Shown here: positions 1-27,778 of the stretch, one piece after another | How the letters are laid out: every line of letters starts with the position of its first letter | Numbering within the stretch: position 1 is the stretch's first letter | From: an uncultured Solirubrobacteraceae bacterium | GTDB lineage: Bacteria > Actinomycetota > Thermoleophilia > Solirubrobacterales > Solirubrobacteraceae | Direction of reading: 5' to 3' | Length of the DNA stretch: 64,000 bases | Assembly (NCBI GenBank): GCA_964588985.1 | Contig: CAZPQW010000005.1 | Location: forward strand, 102,681-166,680 | Program-made: the position numbers and the translations under genes | Notes under the pieces: model-generated | The model's input: only the letters and a program-made list of their open reading frames with translations | Databases searched by the model: none | Told to the model about the DNA's origin: nothing

Positions 1-1460
1 TCCTCCGCCGGCCGATCCGCCAGCTCGTGCCCGCGACCCTCGTGCGCGCGCGCCTGCACCAGCTCCCACCCCGGGCTTTCGCGTGTGTCCAGCAGCTTGC
101 CGGGATGGAAGTCCACGCGCGGGGTCACCGGGCGCGGCACGAAGTAGCCCAACGCCACCTGACCCGCGATCCGCTCCGCCGAGCCGAGCCGGCGCACGAC
201 GTCCTGCCCGCGCGGGTCCTGCTCGATCTGCTCCTGCAGCCGCTCGATCAGGTCGTCGATCAGCAGCGCCCCCTCCTCGCTCGAGGCGACCGCGCGCTTC
301 TGGTGGGAGACCATCCCGTGGAAGATGTCGCCGGTCGGATGCATGCCTTCGCCGCCGGTGCTCATCAGGCGCGCCATCAGCTGGCGTCTGCAGGTGACGT
401 GTGCGACCCACTCCGCACCGCACACCTGTACCGAGGTCATGCCCTCCAGGCCCGGCGCCGCCATCCAGTACGCGAGCGCGCGCATGTGCTGGGTGGGCAG
501 ATCGTCGCCGCGCACGAGCGGGAATTCGTCGAAGTCCTCGCGCTCGGTTGGGTAGATCACCACGCCGTCCTCGCGCCGGCGCAGCAGCCCTTCGCGCAGG
601 CCGCACGCGGTCAGCTCGGCCGCCTCGGAGAGGAAGTCCGACTCGAAGAACACGCGGTCGAAGGCGATTCCCAGCCGCTGCAGCGTCTTGCGCTGCCCCG
701 CGATCACCCACGCGCGCGTCTTGTACCAGAGCTCCAGCGCCTCGCGGTCCCCGGAGAGCACTCGCCGCAGCAGCTGGTCGGCGTCGTCGTCGCGCATCGT
801 CAGCTCGCGCGTGAGGGAGTCCTCGGGCTGCTCGGTGGAGCCACCGTTGAAGGATCGGCCCGCCGCGACGTACTCGGCGTAGCAGCAGCCCACGAAGTGG
901 TCGCTCTTCTCGTTGCGGTCCGGCCACGCCTGCGCGTGGCGGCCGCTCTTCATCACCCCGGCCATCGCCTCGCCCATGCTGCGCCCGGCGTCTGAGATCA
1001 GCGCGCGGCGCTCGACCTGGCCGCCGGCCTGGGTCAGGGCCGCGGCGAGCGCGTTGCCGATCGCGAGGTTGCGCAGGTGCCCGACGTGCAGCGCCTTGGT
1101 CGCGTTGGCGTCCCAGAACTGCACCGAGAAGCGTCGCCCGCGCGCGAGGTCGGAGAGCCGCTCCTCGCCGCTGTCGCCTTCCCGCAGCGCGGTCCCCTGA
1201 GTTTCGATCCAGTCGTCTGACAGCCGCAGCTCCACGCCCGCGTCGGTGCGCGTCGCGCGCTCTACCCACGGCTCGCGTTCGATCCGCTCGAGCGCGTCGA
1301 GCGATGCCGCGTCATCGCGCCAGACGGGTGAACGTGGGACGAGCTTGACGTCGAAGCGGGCGTTCGGACGCAGCGGCGTGCGGGCAGCCCACAGTCCGCC
1401 CGTCTCGCCCTGCTCGGGCAGTTCCTCGAAGTAGTCGAAAAGGTTGGTGGCCGTCAGCAT
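1..1460 (-). CDS. Divergent arginyl-tRNA synthetase paralog (class I aaRS), 3' end runs off the window
   Basis: Manual translation from ATG at 1460 is open to the window edge (486 codons; absent from the ORF track). MLTATNLF...SVQFWDANATKALHVGHLRNLAIG (HIGH motif), NEKSDHFVGCCY, LGIAFDRVFFESD, RGDDLPTQHMRALAYW, QVCGAEWVAH and FHGMVSHQKRAVASSEEG are collinear with ArgRS motifs. Confidence 0.9.
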   Translation of the reverse strand, partial: MLTATNLFDYFEELPEQGETGGLWAARTPLRPNARFDVKLVPRSPVWRDDAASLDALERIEREPWVERATRTDAGVELRLSDDWIETQGTALREGDSGEERLSDLARGRRFSVQFWDANATKALHVGHLRNLAIGNALAAALTQAGGQVERRALISDAGRSMGEAMAGVMKSGRHAQAWPDRNEKSDHFVGCCYAEYVAAGRSFNGGSTEQPEDSLTRELTMRDDDADQLLRRVLSGDREALELWYKTRAWVIAGQRKTLQRLGIAFDRVFFESDFLSEAAELTACGLREGLLRRREDGVVIYPTEREDFDEFPLVRGDDLPTQHMRALAYWMAAPGLEGMTSVQVCGAEWVAHVTCRRQLMARLMSTGGEGMHPTGDIFHGMVSHQKRAVASSEEGALLIDDLIERLQEQIEQDPRGQDVVRRLGSAERIAGQVALGYFVPRPVTPRVDFHPGKLLDTRESPGWELVQARAHEGRGHELADRPAE

Positions 1461-1468
1461 CTTGGTGA

Positions 1469-1488
1469 GGTCGGCGGTGGAGCCGACC
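1469..1488 (-). other. GC-rich hairpin between the tRNA 3' end and the aaRS start codon
   Basis: Minus strand GGTCGGC-tccacc-GCCGACC, 7-bp perfect stem. Confidence 0.6.
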
Positions 1489-1490
1489 GA

Positions 1491-1563
1491 TGCACCAGCC
1501 GGGGCTCGAACCCGGATCGACGGCGTTTAAGGCCGCTCCCTTAACCGATTAGGGCACTGGTGC
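1491..1563 (-). tRNA. Atypical tRNA, anticodon UAA (reads UUA), short variable loop, CCA not encoded
   Basis: Minus strand folds as a full cloverleaf: GCACCAG TG CCCT AATCGGTTA AGGG A GCGGC CT-TAA-AC GCCGT CGAT CCGGG TTCGAGC CCCGG CTGGTGC A (73 nt). U8, A14, G18G19, U33, purine 37 and TTCGA are all present. Confidence 0.93.
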
Positions 1564-1733
1564 TCAAAACCCGACAGCAACCAGCCGAGCTTCCGGTTTG
1601 GTTTGCGTAGTCGGGCTGCGGGGAGCACCATAAGGCTCGTCGTGGAGAACCGCACACTTCGAAAAACACCGGTAGGACAAGCCTCCAATACACAGGCAGG
1701 AAGGCCATTTTGAGCATGCACGAGGAGCAGCAC

Positions 1734-3137
1734 ATGTCTCTGTCTCTCCCCCCTGGCCCACGCATGCCGAGCGCGCTTCAGGCGCTCGGCTGGGCGCTGC
1801 GACCGCTGCCGTTCATGGAGCGCTGCAACAACCATTACGGTGAAATCTTCACCCTGCGCGTTCGTCGCGGTCGTCCCTGGGTTGTCCTCACGGATCCGGC
1901 GGATGTCAAGCTGCTGTTCACGACCGACGCGAGCGCGGTGCGCGCGGGAGCGGTCGCGGCCAGCCCGGTACTCGAGCCGCTGCTGGGCTCACGGTCGGTG
2001 ATGCTGCTCGACGAGCCCGAGCACATGACACACCGCAAGCTGATGCTGCCCGCGTTCCGCATCACGCGCATGAGCGCCTATGACAACCTGATCACCCGCG
2101 TGGCCCGTCGAGAGATCTCGAAGTGGCCGATCGGCGAGCCGTTCGCGCTGTGGCCGCGCATGCAGGCGATCACCACAGAGGTGATCCTCCGCGCCGTGTT
2201 CGGCCCTCTGGAGGAGCCCCGGTTGGAGCATCTGAGCGGCCTGCTGAGACAGATGACCGCGCAGCTGAACGATCCGCGCCGCCTGGCGATCCTGACCGCC
2301 GTGGGCCCGGGGCGACTCTCTCACAGCGAGCGACTTCGCTCGGTGATGCGCCCGGTGGAGAGCGCGGTGCTCGAGGAGGTGCGCCGACGGCGTGCTTCAC
2401 CCAACGGCGCAGCCTCGCAGGACATCCTCGCGATGCTCGAGCGCGCACACGACCAGGGTGGCTCGCCGATGGACGAGAAGCAGGTGCGCGACGAAGTCCT
2501 CACACTGCTCTCCGACGGTCCGACCGCCACCTCGCTCGCGTGGGCATTCGAGTGCCTCATGCGCCATCCCGAGAAGCTCGCCCGACTGCGCAAGGAGGCC
2601 CTCGCGGGTCGCGAGTACAGCTATGCGGACGCGGTCGCCAAGGAGACGCTGCGCCTGTGCCCGGTGGTGCCCCTGGTGATGCGCGAGCTGACCCAGCCGA
2701 TGCGCATCCGCGGCTACACGCTGCCCGCGGGAGTCATCGTCGCCGCGGGCGTTTACCTGATTCACCGTCGCGAGGACATCTATCCGCAATCGCGCACTTT
2801 CCTACCTGAGCGCTTCCTCGACCAGAACGCCCCCACCTACGCGTGGATTCCCTTCGGCGGAGGAGTGAGACGCTGCCTCGCGGCCAACTTCGCCCAGCTC
2901 ACGATCAGGCGAGTGATGCAGACCGTGCTCACCGAGGTGGACCTGCAGGCGGTCTCCACATCCGGATCCGAGCACGCGGCGAGAAGCTCAGTCGCGTTCG
3001 TCCCCAACGAGCAGGCGATGGCGATCGTCACTCGACGGATCGGATCTCCCACCGACGAGCGGCTCGAGGATCCGGTCGGCGACGAGACCGAGCGAGCCGA
3101 GGGTCGAGAATCCGGGGCCCTGGCCGAGGCCGGCTAG
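1734..3137 (+). CDS. Cytochrome P450 with atypical I-helix
   Basis: LPPGP N-terminus, ExxR (ETLR), PERF, heme motif FGGGVRRCLA. RBS GAGGAG precedes ATG 1734. Confidence 0.93.
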   Translation: MSLSLPPGPRMPSALQALGWALRPLPFMERCNNHYGEIFTLRVRRGRPWVVLTDPADVKLLFTTDASAVRAGAVAASPVLEPLLGSRSVMLLDEPEHMTHRKLMLPAFRITRMSAYDNLITRVARREISKWPIGEPFALWPRMQAITTEVILRAVFGPLEEPRLEHLSGLLRQMTAQLNDPRRLAILTAVGPGRLSHSERLRSVMRPVESAVLEEVRRRRASPNGAASQDILAMLERAHDQGGSPMDEKQVRDEVLTLLSDGPTATSLAWAFECLMRHPEKLARLRKEALAGREYSYADAVAKETLRLCPVVPLVMRELTQPMRIRGYTLPAGVIVAAGVYLIHRREDIYPQSRTFLPERFLDQNAPTYAWIPFGGGVRRCLAANFAQLTIRRVMQTVLTEVDLQAVSTSGSEHAARSSVAFVPNEQAMAIVTRRIGSPTDERLEDPVGDETERAEGRESGALAEAG

Positions 3138-4334
3138 CCCGGGCACCTGCAGCAGCGGGCGCACGCCGCTGAGCTCCAGGAATCGAGCCATGTTCACTTC
3201 TTCGCGTTTGTCGCCTTCCCAAAGCGGCCCGGTCACCCGTTCGATCTCGCGCCGCGCCGGATCGGACAGCAGACTGCGCAGCTGCTCGAGCAGATCGAAG
3301 CCGGTCGAGTTGATCACGTAGTCGTGGCGCGCCGTCTCGGCGCCCGCGACCGACTCGTAGTTGACGCACACCCCCTCGCCGTTCGGAGCGGACGCGATGC
3401 GCTCGACGCGCCCGAGCACGAAGCGACAGCGCTCGTCCCACGCGAAGCGCGCGAGACGCTCCGGCCCGAATACTCCGCGATCGGTGTGATTGATGAAGTC
3501 GCGACGCGTATCGACGCTGAGCGTCTCCCAGGCGACATTGTCGGGATTGGAGAAGACGCGATTCTCCAAGAAGCTCTCCAGCCGACTCAGAGGCAGATTG
3601 GAGGTGTACACCGATATGTACGCGTCGGGACGCAGGTTGCGCACGAATTCGATGCAGCTGAGCGCGCTCTCCCCGCCACCCACGATCGCGATGTCGGAGC
3701 TCTGCTCGACCGGCGCGTGCGCGATCGCGATGCGCCCGCTGTCGCAGTCGAGCACGCGCTGCGCGATCTGGGGATCATGGGGGATGCCGCGATTGACCCC
3801 GGGGCCGGTCAGCGCGAACGCCCCGCACGCGTACTGGGACGCGGCGGGCGCACCGGCGACGTCCACGATCCAGCGTTCGCCGTCGTCGCTCAGCGACAGT
3901 CGTGCGACACGCCCGTTGACGAGCGTCACTCCCTCGGTGGCGCGAGTGAGCACCCACGCAAGGTATGCGCCGTATTCGCGGCGCTGCACGGACGGTTCGC
4001 CGGCGTCCACCCAGCGTGAGTAGTCGCCTTTCTCGATCAGGTAGCGATGCCAGGAGAACGCCATCGACGCGATGTCCACTTCCGCTCCGGCGGAGCCGAA
4101 CGCGCATGCGCTCTGGTACGGGTAGCCGACGTCTTTGGAGGGGGTGATCGCGAGCACCTCCCTGCTCGTGGTGATGCCGTTTCCGTCGACCCACGCGGCC
4201 GCCGGCCCGGTCGCCTCGACGAGCGTCATCCTGATCGGACCCAGGCCGAGACTGTTGAGCACGTGCACCTTCATCGCGATCGCGGTGCCCTTGGCTCCGG
4301 CGCCGACGACGAGCAGGTCGGTGTTGTTCACCAC
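2988..4334 (-). CDS. Flavin-dependent lysine/ornithine N-monooxygenase (MbtG/IucD/SidA family)
   Basis: VVGAGAKG FAD motif, TPSKDVGYPY, IVGGGESA NADPH motif, TDRGVF and GQGPGF, collinear with mycobacterial MbtG. GTG start at 4334 or 4331 inferred. Confidence 0.88.
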   Translation of the reverse strand: MVNNTDLLVVGAGAKGTAIAMKVHVLNSLGLGPIRMTLVEATGPAAAWVDGNGITTSREVLAITPSKDVGYPYQSACAFGSAGAEVDIASMAFSWHRYLIEKGDYSRWVDAGEPSVQRREYGAYLAWVLTRATEGVTLVNGRVARLSLSDDGERWIVDVAGAPAASQYACGAFALTGPGVNRGIPHDPQIAQRVLDCDSGRIAIAHAPVEQSSDIAIVGGGESALSCIEFVRNLRPDAYISVYTSNLPLSRLESFLENRVFSNPDNVAWETLSVDTRRDFINHTDRGVFGPERLARFAWDERCRFVLGRVERIASAPNGEGVCVNYESVAGAETARHDYVINSTGFDLLEQLRSLLSDPARREIERVTGPLWEGDKREEVNMARFLELSGVRPLLQVPGLAGLGQGPGFSTLGSLGLVADRILEPLVGGRSDPSSDDRHRLLVGDERD

Positions 4335-4413
4335 GTCGCAGATCCTCCGGTCGAAGCTTGTCGTGCTCTCGTGCAAACGGCACGCCGAGTTATAGGGAGA
4401 AGGGCGACGTGGC

Positions 4414-4992
4414 TCAATGTGAGACCGGAACGCTCCCCCCGCAGGTCGGGCAAACCACCGTGTTCGCGTCGGCATCCGGCGTGGACGGATCGCTCCCGTC
4501 GTTTCCATCACCGGCTTTGAGCGCACGGCGGCGGCCGCGCAGTTCCGCGCGGAGGTCCGCGACCGACAGTTTGTCGGCGCTCGCTCGCGCCAGCCAGTGG
4601 TCCTGGATCGCGACATCCAGCGCCGCGACCGTCGCGTGGTGACTCCAGGAGAGATTCTCCCTACGTCGGGAGATGTCGAAGCGCGACGCGACGTACACCA
4701 TGTTCATCAGGGATTGGACGTCGTATCCGGTGAGCTTCACCGCTCTCGTGTAGCGCTCGCCGAAGCGCGCGTTGCCGTAGTTGATCCAGTCGCCCAGCCA
4801 CCATTGGCTGCAGCGACCGATCTCGCCGAAGCGACGCCCCAACGCCGACCACTCGGCCAGGCCGACCTCGCCGCCGGGAACCCAGCCCACCTGTGTCAGC
4901 TCTGGAGTAGTCCGCGCCGGCCTCACATGAGGTCGTTCACGCGCAGTCGCTTGCCCGGCACCGTCTGTCGTCTGTGACAAGGCGGAAGTCAC
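4414..4992 (-). CDS. LmbU-family transcriptional regulator
   Basis: WWLGDWINYG..RFGERY..A...TGYDVQSLMN..YVASRF..SRRRENLSWSHHA.VAAL signature. Strong RBS GAGGAGG before GTG. Confidence 0.85.
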   Translation of the reverse strand: MTSALSQTTDGAGQATARERPHVRPARTTPELTQVGWVPGGEVGLAEWSALGRRFGEIGRCSQWWLGDWINYGNARFGERYTRAVKLTGYDVQSLMNMVYVASRFDISRRRENLSWSHHATVAALDVAIQDHWLARASADKLSVADLRAELRGRRRALKAGDGNDGSDPSTPDADANTVVCPTCGGSVPVSH

Positions 4993-5184: not shown

Positions 5185-6486
5185 TCAGTCGTTCGCGGTG
5201 ACGGTCTCGAGCAGCTCCGCGAAGCGCTCACGCGAGCGCGCGCGGCGCGTCGGCAGGTGTTCGCTCGGCACACCGTCCGCGGGTGGCGCGTAGCCGTTGA
5301 GGATGTGGCGCGCGACGGACTGGCGGTGCACCTCGTCGGGACCGTCGTAGATGCGCGCGGCGCGCGCGAAACGATACATCTGCTCGAGCGGCAGGTCGGT
5401 GGAGTAGCCGAGCGAGCCGTGCAACTGCAGCGCCCGATCGACCACGTCGTGGAGCACCTTCGCGCCGTAGAACTTGATCAGCGCGACGTCGGTGCGCGCG
5501 GCGCTCGCGCCCTGTGTGTCCATCACCCACGCGGCGTGCAGCGTCATCAGGCGTGCGGCCTGCATCTCGGCGGCGCTGTCGGCGATCCAGTTCTGCACGG
5601 TCTGCTTCTGCGCGAGCAGCGAGCCGTGGGCTTCTCTATATGTGGCGCGCTCGCACATCATGTCGAACGCGCGGCGCGCGACCCCGAGCCAGCGCATGCA
5701 GTGGTGGATGCGCCCGGGCCCGAGGCGGTGCTGGGCGAGCACGAAGCCCTCGCCCTCGCCGCCGAGCAGCGCCTCCGGGCCGACGCGCACGTCGCTGTAG
5801 AGGATTTCCGAGTGCCCGCCGTAGCCGCCGAAGTGCTCCGCGGGGTGCTCCATCGTGGGGACGTCGCGCACGATGTCGACGCCCGGCATGTCACTCGGGA
5901 CGATGAACATGGACGCGCGCTGCGACGGTCGCGCGTCGGGGTTGGTGACGGCCATCACGATCAGGAAGTCGGCGATCGAGCCGTTGGAGGAGAACCACTT
6001 CTTGCCGTCGAGCACCCAGCCGTCGCCGTCGCGCACCGCGCGCGTCTTCAGCTGCGTGGGGTCGGAGCCCGGCGTGTGCGGCTCGGTCATCGAGAACGCG
6101 CTGCGCAGGTCGCCCGCGAGCAGCGGGTGCAGCCAGCGGTCCTTCTGCTCGGGCGTGCCCGCCATAGCGAGGATCTCCGAGTTGCCGGAGTCCGGCGCGG
6201 CGTTGCCGAACGCGAGCGGCGCGATCGGCGAGGTGCCGAGGATCTCGTGCATCAGCCCGAGCTTCACCTGCCCCATCCCCTGGCCGCCGAGCTCGGGCGG
6301 CAGATGCGTCGCCCACAGCCCGCGCGCCTTGACCTGCTCCTGCAGCGGCGCGATCGCACGGCTGAGGCCATCGAGACCCAGCTCCGGCCAGATCGCCTCC
6401 AGCGGCCAGATCTCGGTGCGCACGAACTCCGCCATCCAGTCGAGCTGCTCCTGGTAGTCGGCGTCGGTGGAGAAGTCCCAGCTCAT
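5185..6486 (-). CDS. Acyl-CoA dehydrogenase
   Basis: FSMTEP..GSD, GKKWFSSNG, RLGPGRIHHCMR, RIYDGPDEVH. Start MSWDFST. Confidence 0.93.
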   Translation of the reverse strand: MSWDFSTDADYQEQLDWMAEFVRTEIWPLEAIWPELGLDGLSRAIAPLQEQVKARGLWATHLPPELGGQGMGQVKLGLMHEILGTSPIAPLAFGNAAPDSGNSEILAMAGTPEQKDRWLHPLLAGDLRSAFSMTEPHTPGSDPTQLKTRAVRDGDGWVLDGKKWFSSNGSIADFLIVMAVTNPDARPSQRASMFIVPSDMPGVDIVRDVPTMEHPAEHFGGYGGHSEILYSDVRVGPEALLGGEGEGFVLAQHRLGPGRIHHCMRWLGVARRAFDMMCERATYREAHGSLLAQKQTVQNWIADSAAEMQAARLMTLHAAWVMDTQGASAARTDVALIKFYGAKVLHDVVDRALQLHGSLGYSTDLPLEQMYRFARAARIYDGPDEVHRQSVARHILNGYAPPADGVPSEHLPTRRARSRERFAELLETVTAND

Positions 6487-6592
6487 GGCGTGGCGTCCTT
6501 TCGTTCGGGGCCTGGCGGTGCTGTGCCTGCAAGCGTACGTGCTATCAACCCAAGCGCAACGCTTTCCACCATCTCGAACAAGGAGCCGCCAC

Positions 6593-6988
6593 ATGAGCAC
6601 CACCGAGCAGCTGGTCACGGGCGTCGACTTCGTCTCTGTACCCACCGGCGATCTCGCCGCCTCCGTCGAGTTCTACGGCGACACGTTGGGCCTGCGCCGC
6701 TCGGTGTACATGCCCGACCGCAACTTCGCGGAGTTCGAGACCGGCAACCTCACACTGAGTGTCGTTCACGCGGAGAAGATGGGGATCCCGCACTGCGTGA
6801 ACCAGAACGCGATCGCGCTGCACGTCGACGACGTCGAAGCGACCCGCGCGACGCTCGAAGCACGCGGCGTGAGCTTCCAGGGAGACACGTTCGACACGAG
6901 CGTCTGCCACATGGCGTTCTTCACCGACCCCTACGGCAACGCGCTGATGCTCCACCACCGCTACGCACCGCGCAACCCCGAGTCCTAG
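6593..6988 (+). CDS. VOC/glyoxalase family protein
   Basis: DLAASVEFYGDTLGL, ALHVDDVEA, FFTDPYGNALMLH. Confidence 0.88.
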   Translation: MSTTEQLVTGVDFVSVPTGDLAASVEFYGDTLGLRRSVYMPDRNFAEFETGNLTLSVVHAEKMGIPHCVNQNAIALHVDDVEATRATLEARGVSFQGDTFDTSVCHMAFFTDPYGNALMLHHRYAPRNPES

Positions 6989-7052
6989 ACGCACCTACAC
7001 GTCGCCACCGCGCCCTTATATTGAGCGGATGGCTGGGCCCGGACCATTGGAG

Positions 7053-7868
7053 ATGTCGCTCCTGCCGGGAGCGCGCGAGCTGCTCGACGCGCACGCCGCG
7101 GCGCTGCCCCAGCGCGACGATCTTTGCGGCGCGTTCTGCGGCGCGCTGGCGCTGAGCGCGGCGGGGTTCCGCGAGCGCGGCGGGGAGCCCGTAGATCAGG
7201 ACGCGGTGGGGCTGGCCGCGGGGAGCATCGTGTCGACAGCCGGCGCGCGCGATCCGGGCACGCTCCCGCACGGCGAACCGGGCCGGCGCGACTACCGCCT
7301 GGCGATCCCCGAGATCGAGGACGCCGACGTGTCCGGCACGACGTGCTCGGGTGTGATCGACGCGATCGCGGAGCTCTCCGACGGCGCGCTGGAGGCGATC
7401 CCTTTCAGCGGCCCGTGGACGGCGGAGACGCTCGGCGGCCTCTACGACGTGGCCGCCGAGCTGAAGCGCCCGGTGACGTTGATCGCGAACTTCGCCACCC
7501 ACCACCTGTGGGGCGGGTCCGCTCGGTTCGACCAGCTGCTGGGCTATCTGCTCGACGGCGAGCGAGCAGGGCCTGAGCCGGACTGGCGCGTGGGCCACTT
7601 CGCGTGCGTGTTCGGACGCGTGCGCGGGCCGCGCGGGAACCTTTACGGCGTCGCCGACACCTACCCCGCGCTCGGCGACCATGGCGTGCACATGCAGCCG
7701 CAGGAGCGTCTCGCGGCGGCGCTCGAGCGGCGCGACATGCCGGCGGGCGGGATGATCGTGGTGGCGTTTGCCGACGACGCGGGCGCGATCCGCGCGGGCG
7801 CGGGCGCCGTGGGACTGAGCGAGGGCCTGTGGGACAACGGGACCGTGACGCAGGCGACGCTCGGGTGA
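7053..7868 (+). CDS. Hypothetical protein, possible papain-like (Cys-His-Asp) enzyme
   Basis: PQRDDLCGAF...VGHF...VADTYP spacing resembles C39/phytochelatin-synthase-like catalytic motifs. Its stop overlaps the next start (GTGA). Confidence 0.6.
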   Translation: MSLLPGARELLDAHAAALPQRDDLCGAFCGALALSAAGFRERGGEPVDQDAVGLAAGSIVSTAGARDPGTLPHGEPGRRDYRLAIPEIEDADVSGTTCSGVIDAIAELSDGALEAIPFSGPWTAETLGGLYDVAAELKRPVTLIANFATHHLWGGSARFDQLLGYLLDGERAGPEPDWRVGHFACVFGRVRGPRGNLYGVADTYPALGDHGVHMQPQERLAAALERRDMPAGGMIVVAFADDAGAIRAGAGAVGLSEGLWDNGTVTQATLG

Positions 7869-9178
7869 GCGAGCGGGAGCTCGTATCGCTCGTCTGCTGC
7901 GACCTCGGCGCGATCGTGCGAGGACGCTCGCTGTTCTCGTCCGAGCTGACCGAGGCCGAAGCGTCGGGCATCGGCTGGGTGCCGGCGAACCACGCGCTCA
8001 CGCCGCTCGGCCCGGTGGCGGAGACCAACCCGTATGGGTCGACCGGGGATCTGCGCCTGCTGCCCGACCCCGCCACCCGGGTGCGTGTGGAGGAGGGCCC
8101 CGGCGGTGGCGCGCTGGAGCTACTGCTGTGCGACATCGTGGAGACCGACGGGCGTCCTTGGGAGTGCTGCCCGCGGCAGTTCCTACGCGAGGCGCTGCGC
8201 GAGCTGGAGAGCGAGATCGGCGGCCGGCTCGTGGCGAGCTTCGAGCACGAGTTTCAACTTCTAGAGGACTCGTCCGCTGCGCTCCCGTTCTCACTCGAGG
8301 CGCAGCGACGTGGCGAGCCGTTTGCCACGCGCGCGATGGGCGCGCTCACACAGGCGGGCGTGGAACCGGAGCGGATATTCCCCGAGTACGCGCCGCACCA
8401 GTTCGAGATTCCGGTGGCGCCGGCGGAGGGCGTCGCGAGCGCGGATCGTTCGGTGGTGCTGAGGGAGGTGGTGCGCGAGGTCGCGCGCCGTGAGGGGAAA
8501 CGCGCGAGCTTCGCGCCGCTGCTCGACGTGGCGCAGGCGGGCAACGGCGTGCACATCCACCTGAGCGTGATCGACCGCGATGGCGCGCCGTTGTTCTACG
8601 ACCCCGTGCGTCGCGCGCACCTGAGCGAGACGGGCGAGCGCTTCGCGGCGGGCATCCTCGCGCACGCGCACGCGTTGACCGCGCTCACGGCGCCGAGTCC
8701 GGTGTCCGCCACGCGCCTCCAGCCGCACCGCTGGAGCGCGGGCGCGATGTGCCTGGCGGTGCAGAACCGCGAAGCGCTGCTGCGAATCCCTCCGCTCGTG
8801 GAGCTGGCGGGCGCGGACCCCGCTCGCCAGCTGCGCCTGGAGTACCGCGGCGCGGACGCGGCGGCGAACCCCTACCTGGCGCTCGGCGCGCTCGTGCGTG
8901 CAGGGCTCGACGGGGTGCGCTCGCAGATGCCCGCGCCGCCGATCCTCGACTGCGACCCGGCGGAGCTGGAAGGACCCGAGGTGGAGCGCTTCGGTGTGGG
9001 CTCGCTGCCGGACTCGCTGGAGGAGTCGATGCGGGCGCTCACCGAGAACGCGACCGCGCGCTCGTGGATGGGGTCGCTGCTGTACGAGGCGTACGTGAGC
9101 GTCAAGCAGGCCGAGATCGAGGCGGCGCGCGATGTCGACCTGAAGGAGCTGTGCGCGCGCTATGCCGCGATCTACTGA
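7865..9178 (+). CDS. Glutamine synthetase-like gamma-glutamyl ligase
   Basis: SFEHEF, EYAPHQFEI, GNGVHIHLS, NREALLRIP, LEYRGADAAANPY. Confidence 0.9.
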   Translation: MSERELVSLVCCDLGAIVRGRSLFSSELTEAEASGIGWVPANHALTPLGPVAETNPYGSTGDLRLLPDPATRVRVEEGPGGGALELLLCDIVETDGRPWECCPRQFLREALRELESEIGGRLVASFEHEFQLLEDSSAALPFSLEAQRRGEPFATRAMGALTQAGVEPERIFPEYAPHQFEIPVAPAEGVASADRSVVLREVVREVARREGKRASFAPLLDVAQAGNGVHIHLSVIDRDGAPLFYDPVRRAHLSETGERFAAGILAHAHALTALTAPSPVSATRLQPHRWSAGAMCLAVQNREALLRIPPLVELAGADPARQLRLEYRGADAAANPYLALGALVRAGLDGVRSQMPAPPILDCDPAELEGPEVERFGVGSLPDSLEESMRALTENATARSWMGSLLYEAYVSVKQAEIEAARDVDLKELCARYAAIY

Positions 9179-10352
9179 CGTCGTGCTCGAGCGGCTGCTC
9201 GAGGGGATCGAGCGAGAGAGTCCGCGCGCCGTGGAGCTGCGCCACCGGCTGCACTCAGGGCCCGAGTTGGCGGGCGCCGAGAAGCGGACCGCGGCGATGG
9301 TCGCGGCGGAGCTGCCGGTGGCGAGCGAGACGGCGGCGGCAACAGGGCTGCTCGCCCGGGTGGGACCGGCCGATGGCACGCCGATCGCGGTGCGCGCGGA
9401 GCTGGACGGGCTGCCGGTGCGCGAGCGCACGGGCGCGGCGTTCAGCGCGAGCGGCGAGACGATGCACGCGTGCGGGCACGATGTGCACATGGCAGCGCTT
9501 GTGGCGCTCGCCCGCGCCGCATACTCAATTGAGGAGGATCTACCCGCCCCGCTGCTCGCGGTGTTCCAGCCGAGCGAGGAGGTGCACCCCTCCGGTGCGA
9601 AAGCGCTCGTCGAGGGCGCGCTCGCGGACGCGGCGCCGAAGGCGGTCCTCGCCGCGCACGTCCATCCGGAACTGCCGTGGGGCGAGGTGGCGCTCGACCC
9701 TGGGGCTGTGAACGCGTCGTTCGACGGGTTCGAGATCGTCGTCGAGGGCGAGCCCTCACACGGCGCCTACCCGCACCTGGGACGCGACCCGATCCTCGCG
9801 CTCGCGCAGGTGGTGGTCGCGCTGCACGCGCAGGTCGCGCGGCGGATGGACCCGATGCATCCGACGGTGCTGACGGTGGGCGTGGTGGAGGGCGGGAGCA
9901 CGGAGAACGTGATCCCCGAGCGCGCGAGCGCGCGGGGCGCGCTGCGGTCGCTGCGGGCGGAGGACCGCCTGGCGTTGCGTGAGCTGGTTGAGGAGGTCGT
10001 GACGGGTGTGACAGCCGCGCACGGCTGCCGCGGCGGCGTGTCGTTCGTGGCGGGGGAGCCGGTGTTGGAGAACGACCCGCGCATCGTGGCGGAGGCGTGC
10101 GGGCTGCTCGCCAGTGCCGGCCTTGCACCAGCCCCCGAGTGGCGCTCGTGCGGGTCGGACGACTTCGCCTTCTTCGGCGCGCTCGCGCCGGTGGCGATGG
10201 CCTTCGTGGGGCTCGACGGCGCGGCGGGCTTTCGGTCGCGGCCGCTTCACCACCCGGAGCTGCTCCCGCCCGACGAGGCGGTTGATGCGATCGCGCGCGT
10301 GCAGGCTGTGCTGTATGTGGCGGCGGCGCACTCCTTGCGGCAAGCCGACTGA
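9162..10352 (+). CDS. M20 family amidohydrolase
   Basis: RAELDGLP, MHACGHDVH, FQPSEE, SHGAYPH, GSDDF. Confidence 0.92.
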   Translation: MPRSTDVVLERLLEGIERESPRAVELRHRLHSGPELAGAEKRTAAMVAAELPVASETAAATGLLARVGPADGTPIAVRAELDGLPVRERTGAAFSASGETMHACGHDVHMAALVALARAAYSIEEDLPAPLLAVFQPSEEVHPSGAKALVEGALADAAPKAVLAAHVHPELPWGEVALDPGAVNASFDGFEIVVEGEPSHGAYPHLGRDPILALAQVVVALHAQVARRMDPMHPTVLTVGVVEGGSTENVIPERASARGALRSLRAEDRLALRELVEEVVTGVTAAHGCRGGVSFVAGEPVLENDPRIVAEACGLLASAGLAPAPEWRSCGSDDFAFFGALAPVAMAFVGLDGAAGFRSRPLHHPELLPPDEAVDAIARVQAVLYVAAAHSLRQAD

Positions 10353-10377
10353 GCGCACCGCTGGCTACGATGAGGCG

Positions 10378-10926
10378 GTGCCCGATCGCCTGTACTTCAC
10401 GGACTCCGACGAGGCCAACGCGCTGATTGCGAGCGACCCGATGGCGCTGCTGATCGGCTTTAGCCTCGATCAACAGGTTTCGGTGCAGAAGGCGTTCGCC
10501 GGCCCGCTGACGATCCGCGAGCGCCTCGGCTCGATCGACCCGAAGGACCTGGCGGCAGCCGACCTCGAGCCGGTGTTCCGCGAGAAACCGGCTGTCCACC
10601 GCTTCCCGGGGGCGATGGCCAAGCGCGTGCACGACCTGGCGGTGCATGTGGTGGAGCGGTACGACGGGGACGCGGCGCGTGTGTGGGGCGACGCGAAGAA
10701 CGCGAGCGCGCTGCGCGCCAACCTCGAGGCGCTGCCCGGGTTCGGCGAGATGAAGGTGAAGGCGCTCGGGTCGGTGCTCGCCAAGCGCTACAAACTGGCG
10801 AAGGCCAAGAGCCTCGTCCCACCGCACCCCACCCTCGGCGACGTGGACTCGCCGCAGGCGCTGCTCGACTACCAGGCCGAAAAGCGCGCCCACAAGGCGG
10901 AGTGGTCGAAGCTCAAAGCGCAGTAG
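10378..10926 (+). CDS. HhH-GPD-type base excision repair protein
   Basis: DPMALLIGFSLDQQV, HRFPGAMAKRV, LPGFGEMK. GTG start inferred. Confidence 0.82.
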   Translation: MPDRLYFTDSDEANALIASDPMALLIGFSLDQQVSVQKAFAGPLTIRERLGSIDPKDLAAADLEPVFREKPAVHRFPGAMAKRVHDLAVHVVERYDGDAARVWGDAKNASALRANLEALPGFGEMKVKALGSVLAKRYKLAKAKSLVPPHPTLGDVDSPQALLDYQAEKRAHKAEWSKLKAQ

Positions 10927-12098
10927 CCATCGCGGCTCCTGACGCACCCGTCGACGCCCCCACGGGCATCGGAGCGTCGACGGGCCTGTTCATCGCTGCG
11001 CTGTTCGCGTTCATCGCGACCGGCGCGGCGCTGCCGGTGCTGCCCACGTACGTGCACGGCCCGCTGCACTCGGGGGACATCGCGGTGGGGATCGTGGTGG
11101 GCTCGTTCGCCGTCACCTCGGTGGTGTGCCGGCCGATCGCGGGGCGCCAGGCGGACAGGCGCGGACGGCGCGCGGTGCTCGTCGCGGGCTCGCTCGCGCT
11201 CGCGCTCGGCGGGCTGCTGTACATCTTCTCCAGCAGCGTGATCACACTGGTGCTCGCGCGGCTGATGGTCGGCGCGGGCGAGGGATCGGTGTACACCGCG
11301 GGCGCCACCTGGGTGGTGGACCTCGCGCCCGTCAACCGCCGCGGGCTCGCGCTCGGCATGTTCGGCCTCGCGGTGTGGGGCGGGCTGTCGCTGGGGCCGG
11401 TCGCGGGCGAGCTGCTGCGATCGAGCTCCGGCTATGACGCGGTGTGGATCCTGACCGCCGCCCTGCCACTCGCCGGGGCGGCGATCGCGGTGCGCCTGCC
11501 CGAACCGTCGCGTCCGCCGCAGTCCGGGCGGCCGATACCGCTGCTGCACTTCCCGCGATCGGCCCGCCGCCCGGCGTTCGCGCTGGCGCTCGCCAACATC
11601 GGCTACGCGGCGCTCGCGGGGTTCATCGTGCTCGACCTGCGCAAGCAGGGGATCGGCGGCGGCGCGACGGTGTTCACCGCGTTCGCGGTGTCGGTGTTCG
11701 CGAGCCGGCTGATCTTCGGGCGCGTTCCGGACCGTTTCGGAGCGCGTGTCACAGCCACCGGCGCCGGGCTCGTCGAGGCGCTCGGGCTGATCGTGATCGC
11801 GCTCGCGCACTCGCTGCCCGTGGCGCTGCTCGGAGCGATAGTCGTCGGCGCGGGCTTCTCGATGATGTTCCCCTCGCTCGCGCTGATGGTGGTAGACGAC
11901 GTCCACGACGAGCACCGCGGCTCGGCGATGGGCACTTTCACCGCGTTCTTCGACATCGGCGTAGGCGCGGGAGGTCCGCTGTCGGGGGCGACCGCGTCGC
12001 TCGCCGGCTACCCCGCGGTGTTCGTGCTCGCATCCGTCGCAGCGCTCGGCACCGCCGGACTCGCCGCCATGACGCCGCGCCGCCCTCCCGAGCAGTAA
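10902..12098 (+). CDS. MFS transporter
   Basis: Multiple hydrophobic helices, motif [11 protein letters not shown] and [10 protein letters not shown]. Start uncertain (GTG 10902 or a non-canonical start near 10929). Confidence 0.85.
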
Positions 12099-27705: not shown

Positions 27706-27778
27706 TGGCGAGACCGGGACTCGAACCCGGGACACCACGATTTTCAGTCGTGTGCTCTACCAGCTGAGCTATCTCGCC
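27706..27778 (-). tRNA. tRNA-Phe(GAA)
   Basis: GGCGAGATAGCTCAGCTGGTAGAGCACACGACTGAAAATCGTGGTGTCCCGGGTTCGAGTCCCGGTCTCGCCA, a canonical cloverleaf. Confidence 0.97.

Follow-up and report, generated by a model that had tools for sequence, protein, structure and literature searches.

What is a tRNA with a leucine anticodon doing on a body that is not that of a tRNA-Leu, 30 nucleotides (nt) from the gene of a divergent arginyl-tRNA synthetase (ArgRS)? The locus that raises this question lies at the start of a 64,000-nt stretch of DNA (the window) from an uncultured Solirubrobacteraceae bacterium (assembly GCA_964588985.1, contig CAZPQW010000005.1, positions 102,681 to 166,680 of the forward strand). 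In their sequence features, the tRNA and the ArgRS paralog (here called ArgRSx) look like a natural orthogonal synthetase/tRNA pair, and the operon that they head is, by its gene content, a small-molecule pathway. The explanation that we favour, with moderate confidence, is that ArgRSx loads a non-arginine, probably pathway-made, amino acid onto the tRNA, the charged tRNA being an activated intermediate on the way to a specialised metabolite. The features at this end of the window are the following.

1491 to 1563, minus strand: tRNA of 73 nt, class I, with anticodon UAA, a 4-nt variable region, U20, C10:G25 and A73, the CCA not being encoded (ARAGORN, Rfam, covariation)
1461 to 1490, minus strand: spacer of 30 nt between the tRNA and the ArgRSx start codon, with no terminator-like site
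1 to 1460, minus strand: first 486 codons of ArgRSx, a divergent ArgRS paralog whose gene extends 213 nt beyond the window start (contig C5:102467-104140)

The tRNA and the adjoining synthetase gene

ARAGORN predicts two tRNAs in the window, both on the minus strand, at 1491-1563 and 27706-27778. The first of these matches the Rfam tRNA family (RF00005) end to end (model positions 1-71; 65.2 bits against a gathering score of 29; E-value: 6.7e-12). Its minimum-free-energy fold is the cloverleaf (-31.1 kcal/mol), an energy that is weak evidence when taken alone (z = -1.87; 8 of 200 shuffles equally stable). Read on the minus strand, the gene has a 7-nt anticodon loop with U33, UAA and A37, together with U8, A14, A15 and G18G19, a T loop beginning TTCGA and a T stem made only of G and C. 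Position 20 is U rather than A, position 35 is A rather than C, and position 73 is A. The original prediction had described a leucine anticodon on a short-variable-loop body, with these universal features intact and the arginine elements A20 and C35 missing; the ARAGORN call, the Rfam match and the minus-strand reading agree with it on each count. The second tRNA is an ordinary tRNA-Phe(GAA) (Rfam 73.6 bits).

The tRNA belongs to neither of the canonical groups that its parts recall. Bacterial tRNA-Leu are class II molecules with a long variable arm, and the variable region here is 4 nt. The identity elements of arginine tRNAs are A20 (D loop) and C35 (anticodon); this tRNA has U20 and A35, and the tRNA-Arg genes of the same genome (ACG, CCG, UCU and CCU) all have A at the D-loop position equivalent to U20. 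The host assembly (3.41 Mb, 68% G+C, 48 ARAGORN predictions) contains five other tRNA-Leu genes, all long-armed (84-88 nt by ARAGORN), among them a canonical 87-nt tRNA-Leu(UAA) (C1:258520-258606). The short-arm UAA gene is therefore an exception in this genome. Some other ARAGORN calls in the assembly are likely false positives in G+C-rich DNA: two 'tRNA-Arg(gcg)' of 94 and 78 nt (C4:150012-150105 and C39:15065-15142) and a 97-nt tRNA with a four-base anticodon (C27:31243-31339).

Homologues of the tRNA keep their stems paired through compensatory change. In 35 distinct homologues with UAA or AGU anticodons, 99.5% of stem cells pair and 7 of the 21 pairs have changed on both sides; a wider set that includes UGU forms (n = 26) gives 98.7% and 10 compensatory pairs of 21. 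In each case 0 of 500 shuffles score as high, and slid controls of the alignment reach only 31-51% pairing. Judged by this pattern of substitution, the tRNA is maintained by selection. A pseudogene is ruled out by the stem covariation, and the claim of an anticodon/body mismatch on an intact rather than decayed tRNA is borne out by a body that is conserved with covariation. The T-loop TTC and G18G19 are invariant in 26 of 26 family sequences. Nearly invariant are acceptor pairs 1-5, A73, the unusual C10:G25 pair, the D loop and the T arm, and these features are likely to be the identity set for ArgRSx.

The body of the tRNA is most similar to that of tRNA-Arg(CCU) of the same genome, which is the closest class I tRNA encoded there (53 of 73 positions identical; alignment score 23 against at most 15 for others) and whose variable region is likewise 4 nt long. 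Next to ArgRS-like genes of the outgroup (33-39% identity) are tRNAs that carry arginine anticodons, UCU or CCU. The simplest reading of these comparisons is that the tRNA descends from a rare-codon tRNA-Arg. An arginine origin had been guessed from the acceptor stem, and the guess gains support from the nearness of tRNA-Arg(CCU), from the ArgRS paralog 30 nt downstream and from the UCU and CCU tRNAs beside distant paralogs.

Such distant ArgRS-like genes with tRNAs of related build (UCU, CCU) stand in other gene contexts at locus L088 (G041:C3:384000-402000, positions 6248-10991) and at L111, L112 and L120. The surroundings at L088 include two methyltransferases and an ATP-grasp L-amino-acid ligase. 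When genome G041 is queried with the canonical tRNA-Arg(UCU) of the window's genome, CCU, Met and ACG tRNAs are found and no second UCU tRNA; the tRNA beside the L088 gene may therefore be the sole AGA decoder of that cell.

ArgRSx is a protein of 557 amino acids (aa), read from the contig and encoded on the same strand as the tRNA. The absence of a terminator-like site from the spacer makes co-transcription of the tRNA and ArgRSx likely; in loci where the tRNA is directly upstream, this spacer is 7-160 nt long. Consensus scans of positions 1300-1900 find 0 promoter-like and 0 terminator-like sites, such scans being uninformative for this phylum. ArgRSx has the conserved domain PF00750 (28.2 bits, just above the cut-off of 23.3), and its score against TIGR00456 (83.9 bits) is below the equivalog cut-off of 261.65. 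A canonical ArgRS is present elsewhere in the genome, on contig C4. A profile built from 60 family members aligns to yeast ArgRS (1bs2) over the catalytic and C-terminal domains (71-554 against 104-603; E-value: 1.2e-28). Relatives at an E-value of 1e-30 or lower number 202 representatives in a library of 1.8 billion proteins.

For comparison, a core set was defined as 104 non-redundant loci in which ArgRSx is at least 50% identical to that of the window; counts of neighbouring genes in this set are limited by flanks of 6-8 kb. The catalytic signature of the enzyme is retained. All sequences of the 60-member family alignment have H125, G127 and H128, and K122 is at least 90% conserved there; in the core set, the HIGH residues H125 and H128 and the upstream lysine K122 are kept in 96 of 96 ArgRSx. 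A lysine upstream of HIGH compensates for the KMSK motif in such ArgRS. The amino-acid pocket presents another picture. E. coli ArgRS holds the guanidinium group by D118, Y313 and D317 and the main chain by N123 and Q341 (PMC3956977). At the equivalent positions, 96 core ArgRSx have the following residues.

D118 (guanidinium contact): Q in 82, Y in 8, N in 6
Y313 (guanidinium contact): Q in 96 of 96
D317 (guanidinium contact): A in 79, S in 15, T in 2
N123 (main-chain contact): N in 96 of 96
Q341 (main-chain contact): W in 96 of 96

The canonical ArgRS of the genome has E, Y and D at the three guanidinium columns. In ArgRSx every guanidinium-binding residue has been replaced, and the enzyme no longer looks arginine-specific. 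Because its pocket has been rebuilt, it probably has a cargo other than the ancestral amino acid; that both acidic residues are gone and an invariant tryptophan has been gained suggests a neutral, possibly ring-bearing, side chain.

Distribution of the pair and variation of the anticodon

A scan of one genome per species yielded 247 stretches encoding ArgRSx relatives, and the best 80 of these are all from metagenome-assembled genomes (MAGs) of Solirubrobacterales. Further loci came from searching metagenomes with a profile of distant members. In 400 other Actinomycetota genomes, 0 match the ArgRSx profile at an E-value of 1e-40 or lower (three candidates scored per genome).

The same tRNA body is found in 96 of the 104 core loci, which come from soil metagenomes and from MAGs of Solirubrobacterales. 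Seven of the remaining eight end before the position that the tRNA occupies in their clade, and the eighth is L055 (13,638 nt; ArgRSx at 6001-7638), the sole core locus in which neither ARAGORN nor blastn finds a family tRNA despite complete flanks of 6 kb. The ArgRSx of this locus is on a long branch. The position of the tRNA depends on the clade. In some it immediately precedes ArgRSx; in others it is found downstream (about 4 or 5.7 kb away, on the opposite strand) or farther upstream (about 3.2 kb). Despite at least five gene rearrangements, it is always inside the cluster.

The two genes also occur together at the level of whole genomes. In a sample of 81 genomes from this family, a close ArgRSx (identity of 67% or more) is found in two (G000, the genome of the window, and G071), and a third has a relative at 36%; the tRNA is matched over its full length in exactly the same two. 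Partial tRNA matches in two other family genomes (76-79% identity) are probably unrelated tRNAs. A short-arm tRNA-Leu(UAA) that was standard in the lineage regardless of the synthetase gene had been named as the result that would count against a special role, and this distribution does not show it. An outgroup ArgRS-like gene (37%) occurs with a UAA tRNA of the same family in the metagenome locus L110 (7889-15279).

The anticodon of the tRNA is not constant. In the collinear operon it is UAA in 73 loci, UGU in 18 and AGU in 4, and one further locus is called with the four-letter 'taaa'. This last member (L047:2716-2788) has an 8-nt anticodon loop and a D loop one base shorter, and either is a real variant or reflects a homopolymer error, its MAG being built from long reads. 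A FastTree phylogeny of 106 ArgRSx (proteins of fewer than 500 or more than 700 aa and duplicate loci left out) places AGU in one clade and UGU in two, with two UAA loci sister to one UGU clade, which indicates at least three anticodon switches. Positions of ArgRSx that track UAA versus UGU number 0 of 557 by a strict criterion (at least 90% in each group, with the UAA sisters grouped with other UAA), one by which weak covariation could be missed. From these alignments, ArgRSx probably does not read the anticodon. Within clades, the anticodon is fixed while the stem beneath it varies freely; since ArgRSx shows no sign of reading it, selection on the anticodon most likely acts via decoding.

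The operon and its neighbours

The gene order of the operon is tRNA, ArgRSx, PabAB fusion, GNAT, HDAC-type deacetylase and type II chorismate mutase, with a cytochrome P450 and an N-hydroxylase alongside. The genes are tightly packed, start and stop codons overlapping at four of five operon junctions. Beside ArgRSx and the tRNA, the features of the cluster are as follows.

Operon, behind ArgRSx: fused glutamine amidotransferase/chorismate-binding enzyme (aminodeoxychorismate synthase, PabAB), 726 aa (pabB TIGR00553, 339.3 against a cut-off of 328.4)
Operon: GNAT acetyltransferase, 171 aa, a single domain (Pfam)
Operon: HDAC-type deacetylase, 320 aa (E-value: 5e-44)
Operon: type II chorismate mutase, 96 aa (CM_2; E-value: 1.5e-19)
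Operon: protein of 203 aa with no Pfam match; its language-model neighbours include BacA-type prephenate decarboxylases, which is a lead only
1564 to 1709, strand not applicable: divergent intergenic region of 146 nt between the tRNA/ArgRSx operon and the P450 gene, with no sigma-70-like consensus
1710 to 3137, plus strand: cytochrome P450, 475 aa (PF00067; E-value: 4.5e-53), a conserved cluster member
2988 to 4616, minus strand: FAD-dependent N-hydroxylase resembling L-lysine N6-monooxygenase, 542 aa (PF13434, PF13454), a conserved cluster member
5185 to 6645, minus strand: flavoprotein of the acyl-CoA-dehydrogenase fold, 486 aa (PF00441, PF02770, PF02771), accessory, present in 13 of 72 loci

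How constant this assembly is can be seen in the 72 loci whose flanks both reach 5.5 kb or more: PabAB is found in all 72, the GNAT, the deacetylase, the mutase and the P450 in 71 each, and the tRNA in 70. The N-hydroxylase is found in 53, often being beyond the flank, and the BacA-like putative prephenate decarboxylase in 42 (about 60%). Aminodeoxychorismate synthase and chorismate mutase are the start of the p-aminophenylalanine branch in chloramphenicol and pristinamycin producers. L110 encodes a PabAB homologue (46%) and a chorismate mutase (41%) in a different order, which suggests that the association with the aminodeoxychorismate branch predates the core family.

The N-hydroxylase is similar to the 'L-Lys monooxygenase' of PDB entry 4d7e over residues 100-518 (E-value: 1.8e-63). 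The best NCBIfam match of the P450 is the P450 ApyO of a ribosomally synthesised and post-translationally modified peptide (128 bits, far under the cut-off of 525). The open reading frames (ORFs) of these two genes are convergent and overlap by 150 nt (2988-3137), and both proteins have C-terminal tails beyond their domain matches. No T-box or other known RNA is found near the synthetase gene in the window at the Rfam gathering threshold. Directly after the operon, upstream of the window (L087 7191-9888, C5:95191-97888), are geneD (457 aa), a MurL-like epimerase (Atlas score 0.98), and beside it a protein with Mur-ligase Pfam domains. An epimerase of this kind is found by tblastn in 13 of the same 72 loci. 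Membership of geneD and the Mur ligase in the cluster was considered, and the two are read instead as housekeeping neighbours.

Possible uses of the charged tRNA

The proposed model for the pair is as follows. A functional tRNA derived from a rare-codon tRNA-Arg would be the dedicated substrate of ArgRSx, which would esterify a non-arginine amino acid onto this private tRNA. The best guess for that amino acid is a product of the 4-amino-4-deoxychorismate/prephenate branch or an N-hydroxylated lysine-type amine. The aminoacyl-tRNA would then be an activated ester for the metabolite, and ArgRSx may itself carry out the transfer, in the manner of SbzA and AcmF. The anticodon would not be a coding assignment; placed on the rarest codon (UUA here), it would minimise accidental incorporation into protein. 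As the private tRNA would be ignored by housekeeping enzymes, a non-proteinogenic aminoacyl ester could be held on it without corrupting translation. An N-acetyl protecting step is suggested, by analogy, for the GNAT/deacetylase pair. ArgRS-type enzymes require a tRNA for amino-acid activation, which may be why a tRNA has been retained in the pathway.

Precedents for parts of this model are known. SbzA (IleRS-like) and AcmF (AlaRS-like) transfer an amino acid from aminoacyl-tRNA to metabolites (PMC6331615, PMC12945691); as here, a synthetase paralog with HIGH-type motifs is kept in a biosynthetic cluster. Unlike the present pair, they use normal cellular aminoacyl-tRNA and a proteinogenic amino acid, and the available text of these sources mentions no cluster-encoded tRNA. 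The hydrazine synthetases also combine an enzyme derived from a class I synthetase with a Lys/Orn N-hydroxylase, in a chemistry that includes hydroxylamine aminoacylation (10.1101/2025.08.22.671884). They are tRNA-independent and MetRS-like/cupin proteins, whereas ArgRSx is of ArgRS lineage and no cupin domain was found here. Extra tRNA paralogs reserved for a non-ribosomal pathway are exemplified by the tRNA-Gly of staphylococci (PMC7826273), the one class of non-proteogenic tRNAs that has been studied well.

Several observations weigh against this model. The staphylococcal tRNA-Gly are charged by the normal GlyRS, have a glycine anticodon and, according to the available account (PMC7826273), have lost the T-loop TTC to escape EF-Tu and the ribosome, whereas here the elbow and T loop are intact and the anticodon is on a rare codon. 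All features needed by EF-Tu and the ribosome (G18G19, T-loop TTC, U33, A37) are in fact kept. Selection of the anticodon via decoding would fit avoidance of common codons, and would equally fit a real decoding role. Pfam finds none of the families that use aminoacyl-tRNA (Fem/FemX-type, CDPS, PEARL/LanB, L/F-transferase) among the seven conserved proteins, so that the only candidates for this step in the cluster are ArgRSx itself and the single-domain GNAT. A GNAT acting as an aminoacyl-tRNA acetylase of the TacT/AtaT type has no sequence support, its best PDB match being an uncharacterised GNAT (E-value: 2.8e-6). The gene calls were made with our own ORF and frame-by-frame heuristics on third-position G+C, and all relatives are MAGs or metagenome contigs. 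A further point, the depletion of ACA described below, could mean that the charged tRNA reaches ribosomes.

Ribosomal use is the alternative that survives best, and we regard it as possible but doubtful. ArgRSx would charge the tRNA with arginine, another standard amino acid or a non-canonical amino acid from the pathway, and EF-Tu would deliver it to UUA (ACA or ACU in the sister clades), either as deliberate mistranslation or as a sense-codon analogue of the pyrrolysine (Pyl) system. The intact translation features of the tRNA and an anticodon conserved within clades with no matching change in ArgRSx speak for such a use, as does codon usage in the UGU-type loci, in which ACA has a frequency of 0.46 per 1000 (20 of 43,072 codons) against 3.32 in UAA-type loci (731 of 220,095). 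ACA is the most depleted codon in these loci (log2 -2.8, the next being ATA at -1.6), and none of the 11 UGU loci that exceed 1500 codons is above 0.7 per 1000. The UGU-type loci make up only two or three related clades, and lineage effects on this figure are possible. Relative to UAA-type loci of comparable G+C, the UGU-type metagenome loci L091-L121 use ACG less and ACC more.

Two of the closest known systems also speak for ribosomal use. ProRSx/tRNAProX of Streptomyces and Kitasatospora is likewise a synthetase paralog co-encoded with a devoted tRNA of mismatched anticodon, the anticodon varies with clade (with AGU in both systems) and a canonical synthetase coexists (PMC11415595, PMC10404621). 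It is the only described devoted pair of this type, at least in the available account (PMC11415595), and the locus in the window shares its defining arrangement. Its function in the host is reported to be unknown (PMC11415595; PMC10404621). The two systems differ in several respects. ArgRSx is of the class I ArgRS lineage with a rebuilt pocket, whereas ProRSx is class II. The present pair is in a biosynthetic operon, and none is described for tRNAProX in the accessible account (PMC11415595). A changed anticodon-binding domain is reported for ProRSx (PMC11415595), whereas no covariation of enzyme and anticodon is seen here. The combination of a tRNA, its own synthetase and amino-acid genes in one transferable cluster also resembles the pyrrolysine cassette, pylT-pylS-pylBCD (PMC3941956), an analogy that would favour a coding role. 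In the Pyl system, however, a stop codon is read at conserved target positions by a synthetase of unrelated lineage; here a sense codon varies with clade and no target is conserved (0 of 13, see below).

The codon data for UUA argue against ribosomal use. TTA is the rarest sense codon of the genome (0.16 per 1000 in 2034 long ORFs; 0.13 with the first 20 codons trimmed). The one-base neighbours of the UAA anticodon read stop or sense codons, and those tabulated (TTG, CTA, ATA, TTT and TCA) are each at least about fivefold commoner than TTA. The frequency of TTA is 0.113 per 1000 in a genome of the same genus that yielded neither ArgRSx nor the tRNA, and 0.126 and 0.131 in two system-bearing genomes; the control is this single genome (97% complete, 0.6 Mb examined). 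As TTA is equally rare there, UUA was scarce beforehand and not purged by the tRNA; purging by the system is ruled out to the extent of this one control. The genome of the window was compared with G071 (its first 1.6 Mb, 39%), a genome of the same genus that carries the system and whose ArgRSx is 67% identical; over 518 ortholog-like pairs and 197,343 columns, 13 TTA codons are aligned. Of these, 0 are shared and 8 face the leucine codons CTG, CTC or CTT, in keeping with a UUA that is still read as leucine. This result argues against a site-specific meaning of UUA like that of the Pyl codon, and low-level statistical incorporation is compatible with it.

The cluster itself offers no target for such a tRNA. 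No in-frame TTA is found in the cluster genes of the window, no small TTA-bearing ORF is found in the cluster, and no TTA site is conserved across 80 loci. The TTA codons of those loci are sporadic; those inspected are in frames through the tRNA gene, at a leucine of ArgRSx itself (2 loci) or in one closely related pair of loci. A precursor peptide or a conserved codon read by the tRNA was considered and rejected on these grounds. Also against ribosomal use are the coexisting canonical tRNA-Leu(UAA), the GNAT/deacetylase, P450 and N-hydroxylase neighbours, which point to small-molecule chemistry, and the anticodon switches, at least three in one operon, each of which would demand re-coding of all target sites. 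A particular form of this alternative is that the cassette, horizontally patchy, delivers a cluster-made p-aminophenylalanine-type amino acid (from 4-amino-4-deoxychorismate/prephenate) to the ribosome at the rarest sense codon of each lineage, UUA here and ACA or ACU in sister clades. The near-absence of ACA in UGU-type lineages would then be the footprint of reassignment. We consider this form unlikely.

Self-protection or regulation is a weaker candidate, and an improbable one. A toxic analogue would be kept N-acetylated by the GNAT and released by the deacetylase, and ArgRSx and its tRNA would not be a biosynthetic carrier but a resistant or discriminating synthetase, a sensor or a regulatory tRNA of the bldA kind. 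Synthetase copies in clusters are often resistance genes, and SbzA was found by that logic (PMC6331615); genes for tRNA-directed editing are reported to mark clusters making non-canonical amino acids (PMC13149037). The GNAT and deacetylase may, by analogy, echo the acetylation-based protection of amino-acid antimetabolite and puromycin pathways. However, a resistant ArgRS would retain its arginine-binding residues, of which all three guanidinium contacts are lost in 96 of 96 ArgRSx, and would serve the normal tRNA-Arg set rather than a private tRNA with a non-arginine anticodon; the canonical ArgRS is elsewhere in the genome. For a regulatory tRNA, no cluster gene holds a conserved TTA to gate.

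That the gene is ordinary or degenerate (a minor tRNA-Leu that LeuRS charges, a duplicate in decay or an integration site resembling a tRNA) is very improbable: A73 and the A15:U48 pair are compatible with LeuRS recognition and ARAGORN gives a leucine label from the anticodon, but every other tRNA-Leu of the genome is long-armed, the compensatory conservation extends across ArgRSx divergence to about 50% identity, the tRNA is missing from 78 family genomes with no ArgRSx match and homologues have threonine-type anticodons, so that an ordinary tRNA-Leu is ruled out by body class, distribution and anticodon variation.

We return to the preferred explanation, in which the charged tRNA feeds a metabolite. 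The pair is kin both to devoted synthetase/tRNA pairs and to the synthetase-like enzymes of clusters, and is a member of neither. No ArgRS-like/tRNA pair in a biosynthetic cluster was found described in the literature within the scope of the search, which excluded subscription-only papers and supplements. In a 2026 review of aminoacyl-tRNA-dependent enzymes (PMC12945691), the terms 'tRNA gene', 'dedicated', 'ArgRS' and 'arginyl' have 0 occurrences.

Should the charged tRNA feed a metabolite, this would be the first biosynthetic cluster known to us that brings its own tRNA, and it would show a pathway that uses tRNA-ester chemistry for a non-proteinogenic amino acid without poisoning translation. 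Should it feed the ribosome, the pair would be a new natural variant of the code. Natural synthetase/tRNA pairs that are orthogonal to host translation are, to our knowledge, very rare, the known ones being those of Pyl, selenocysteine and ProRSx, and genetic-code expansion draws on them as its raw material. With seven genes and the tRNA, the operon is small, and a tRNA that tolerates at least three anticodons with no visible change in its enzyme may embody the anticodon-blind recognition that engineers have sought.

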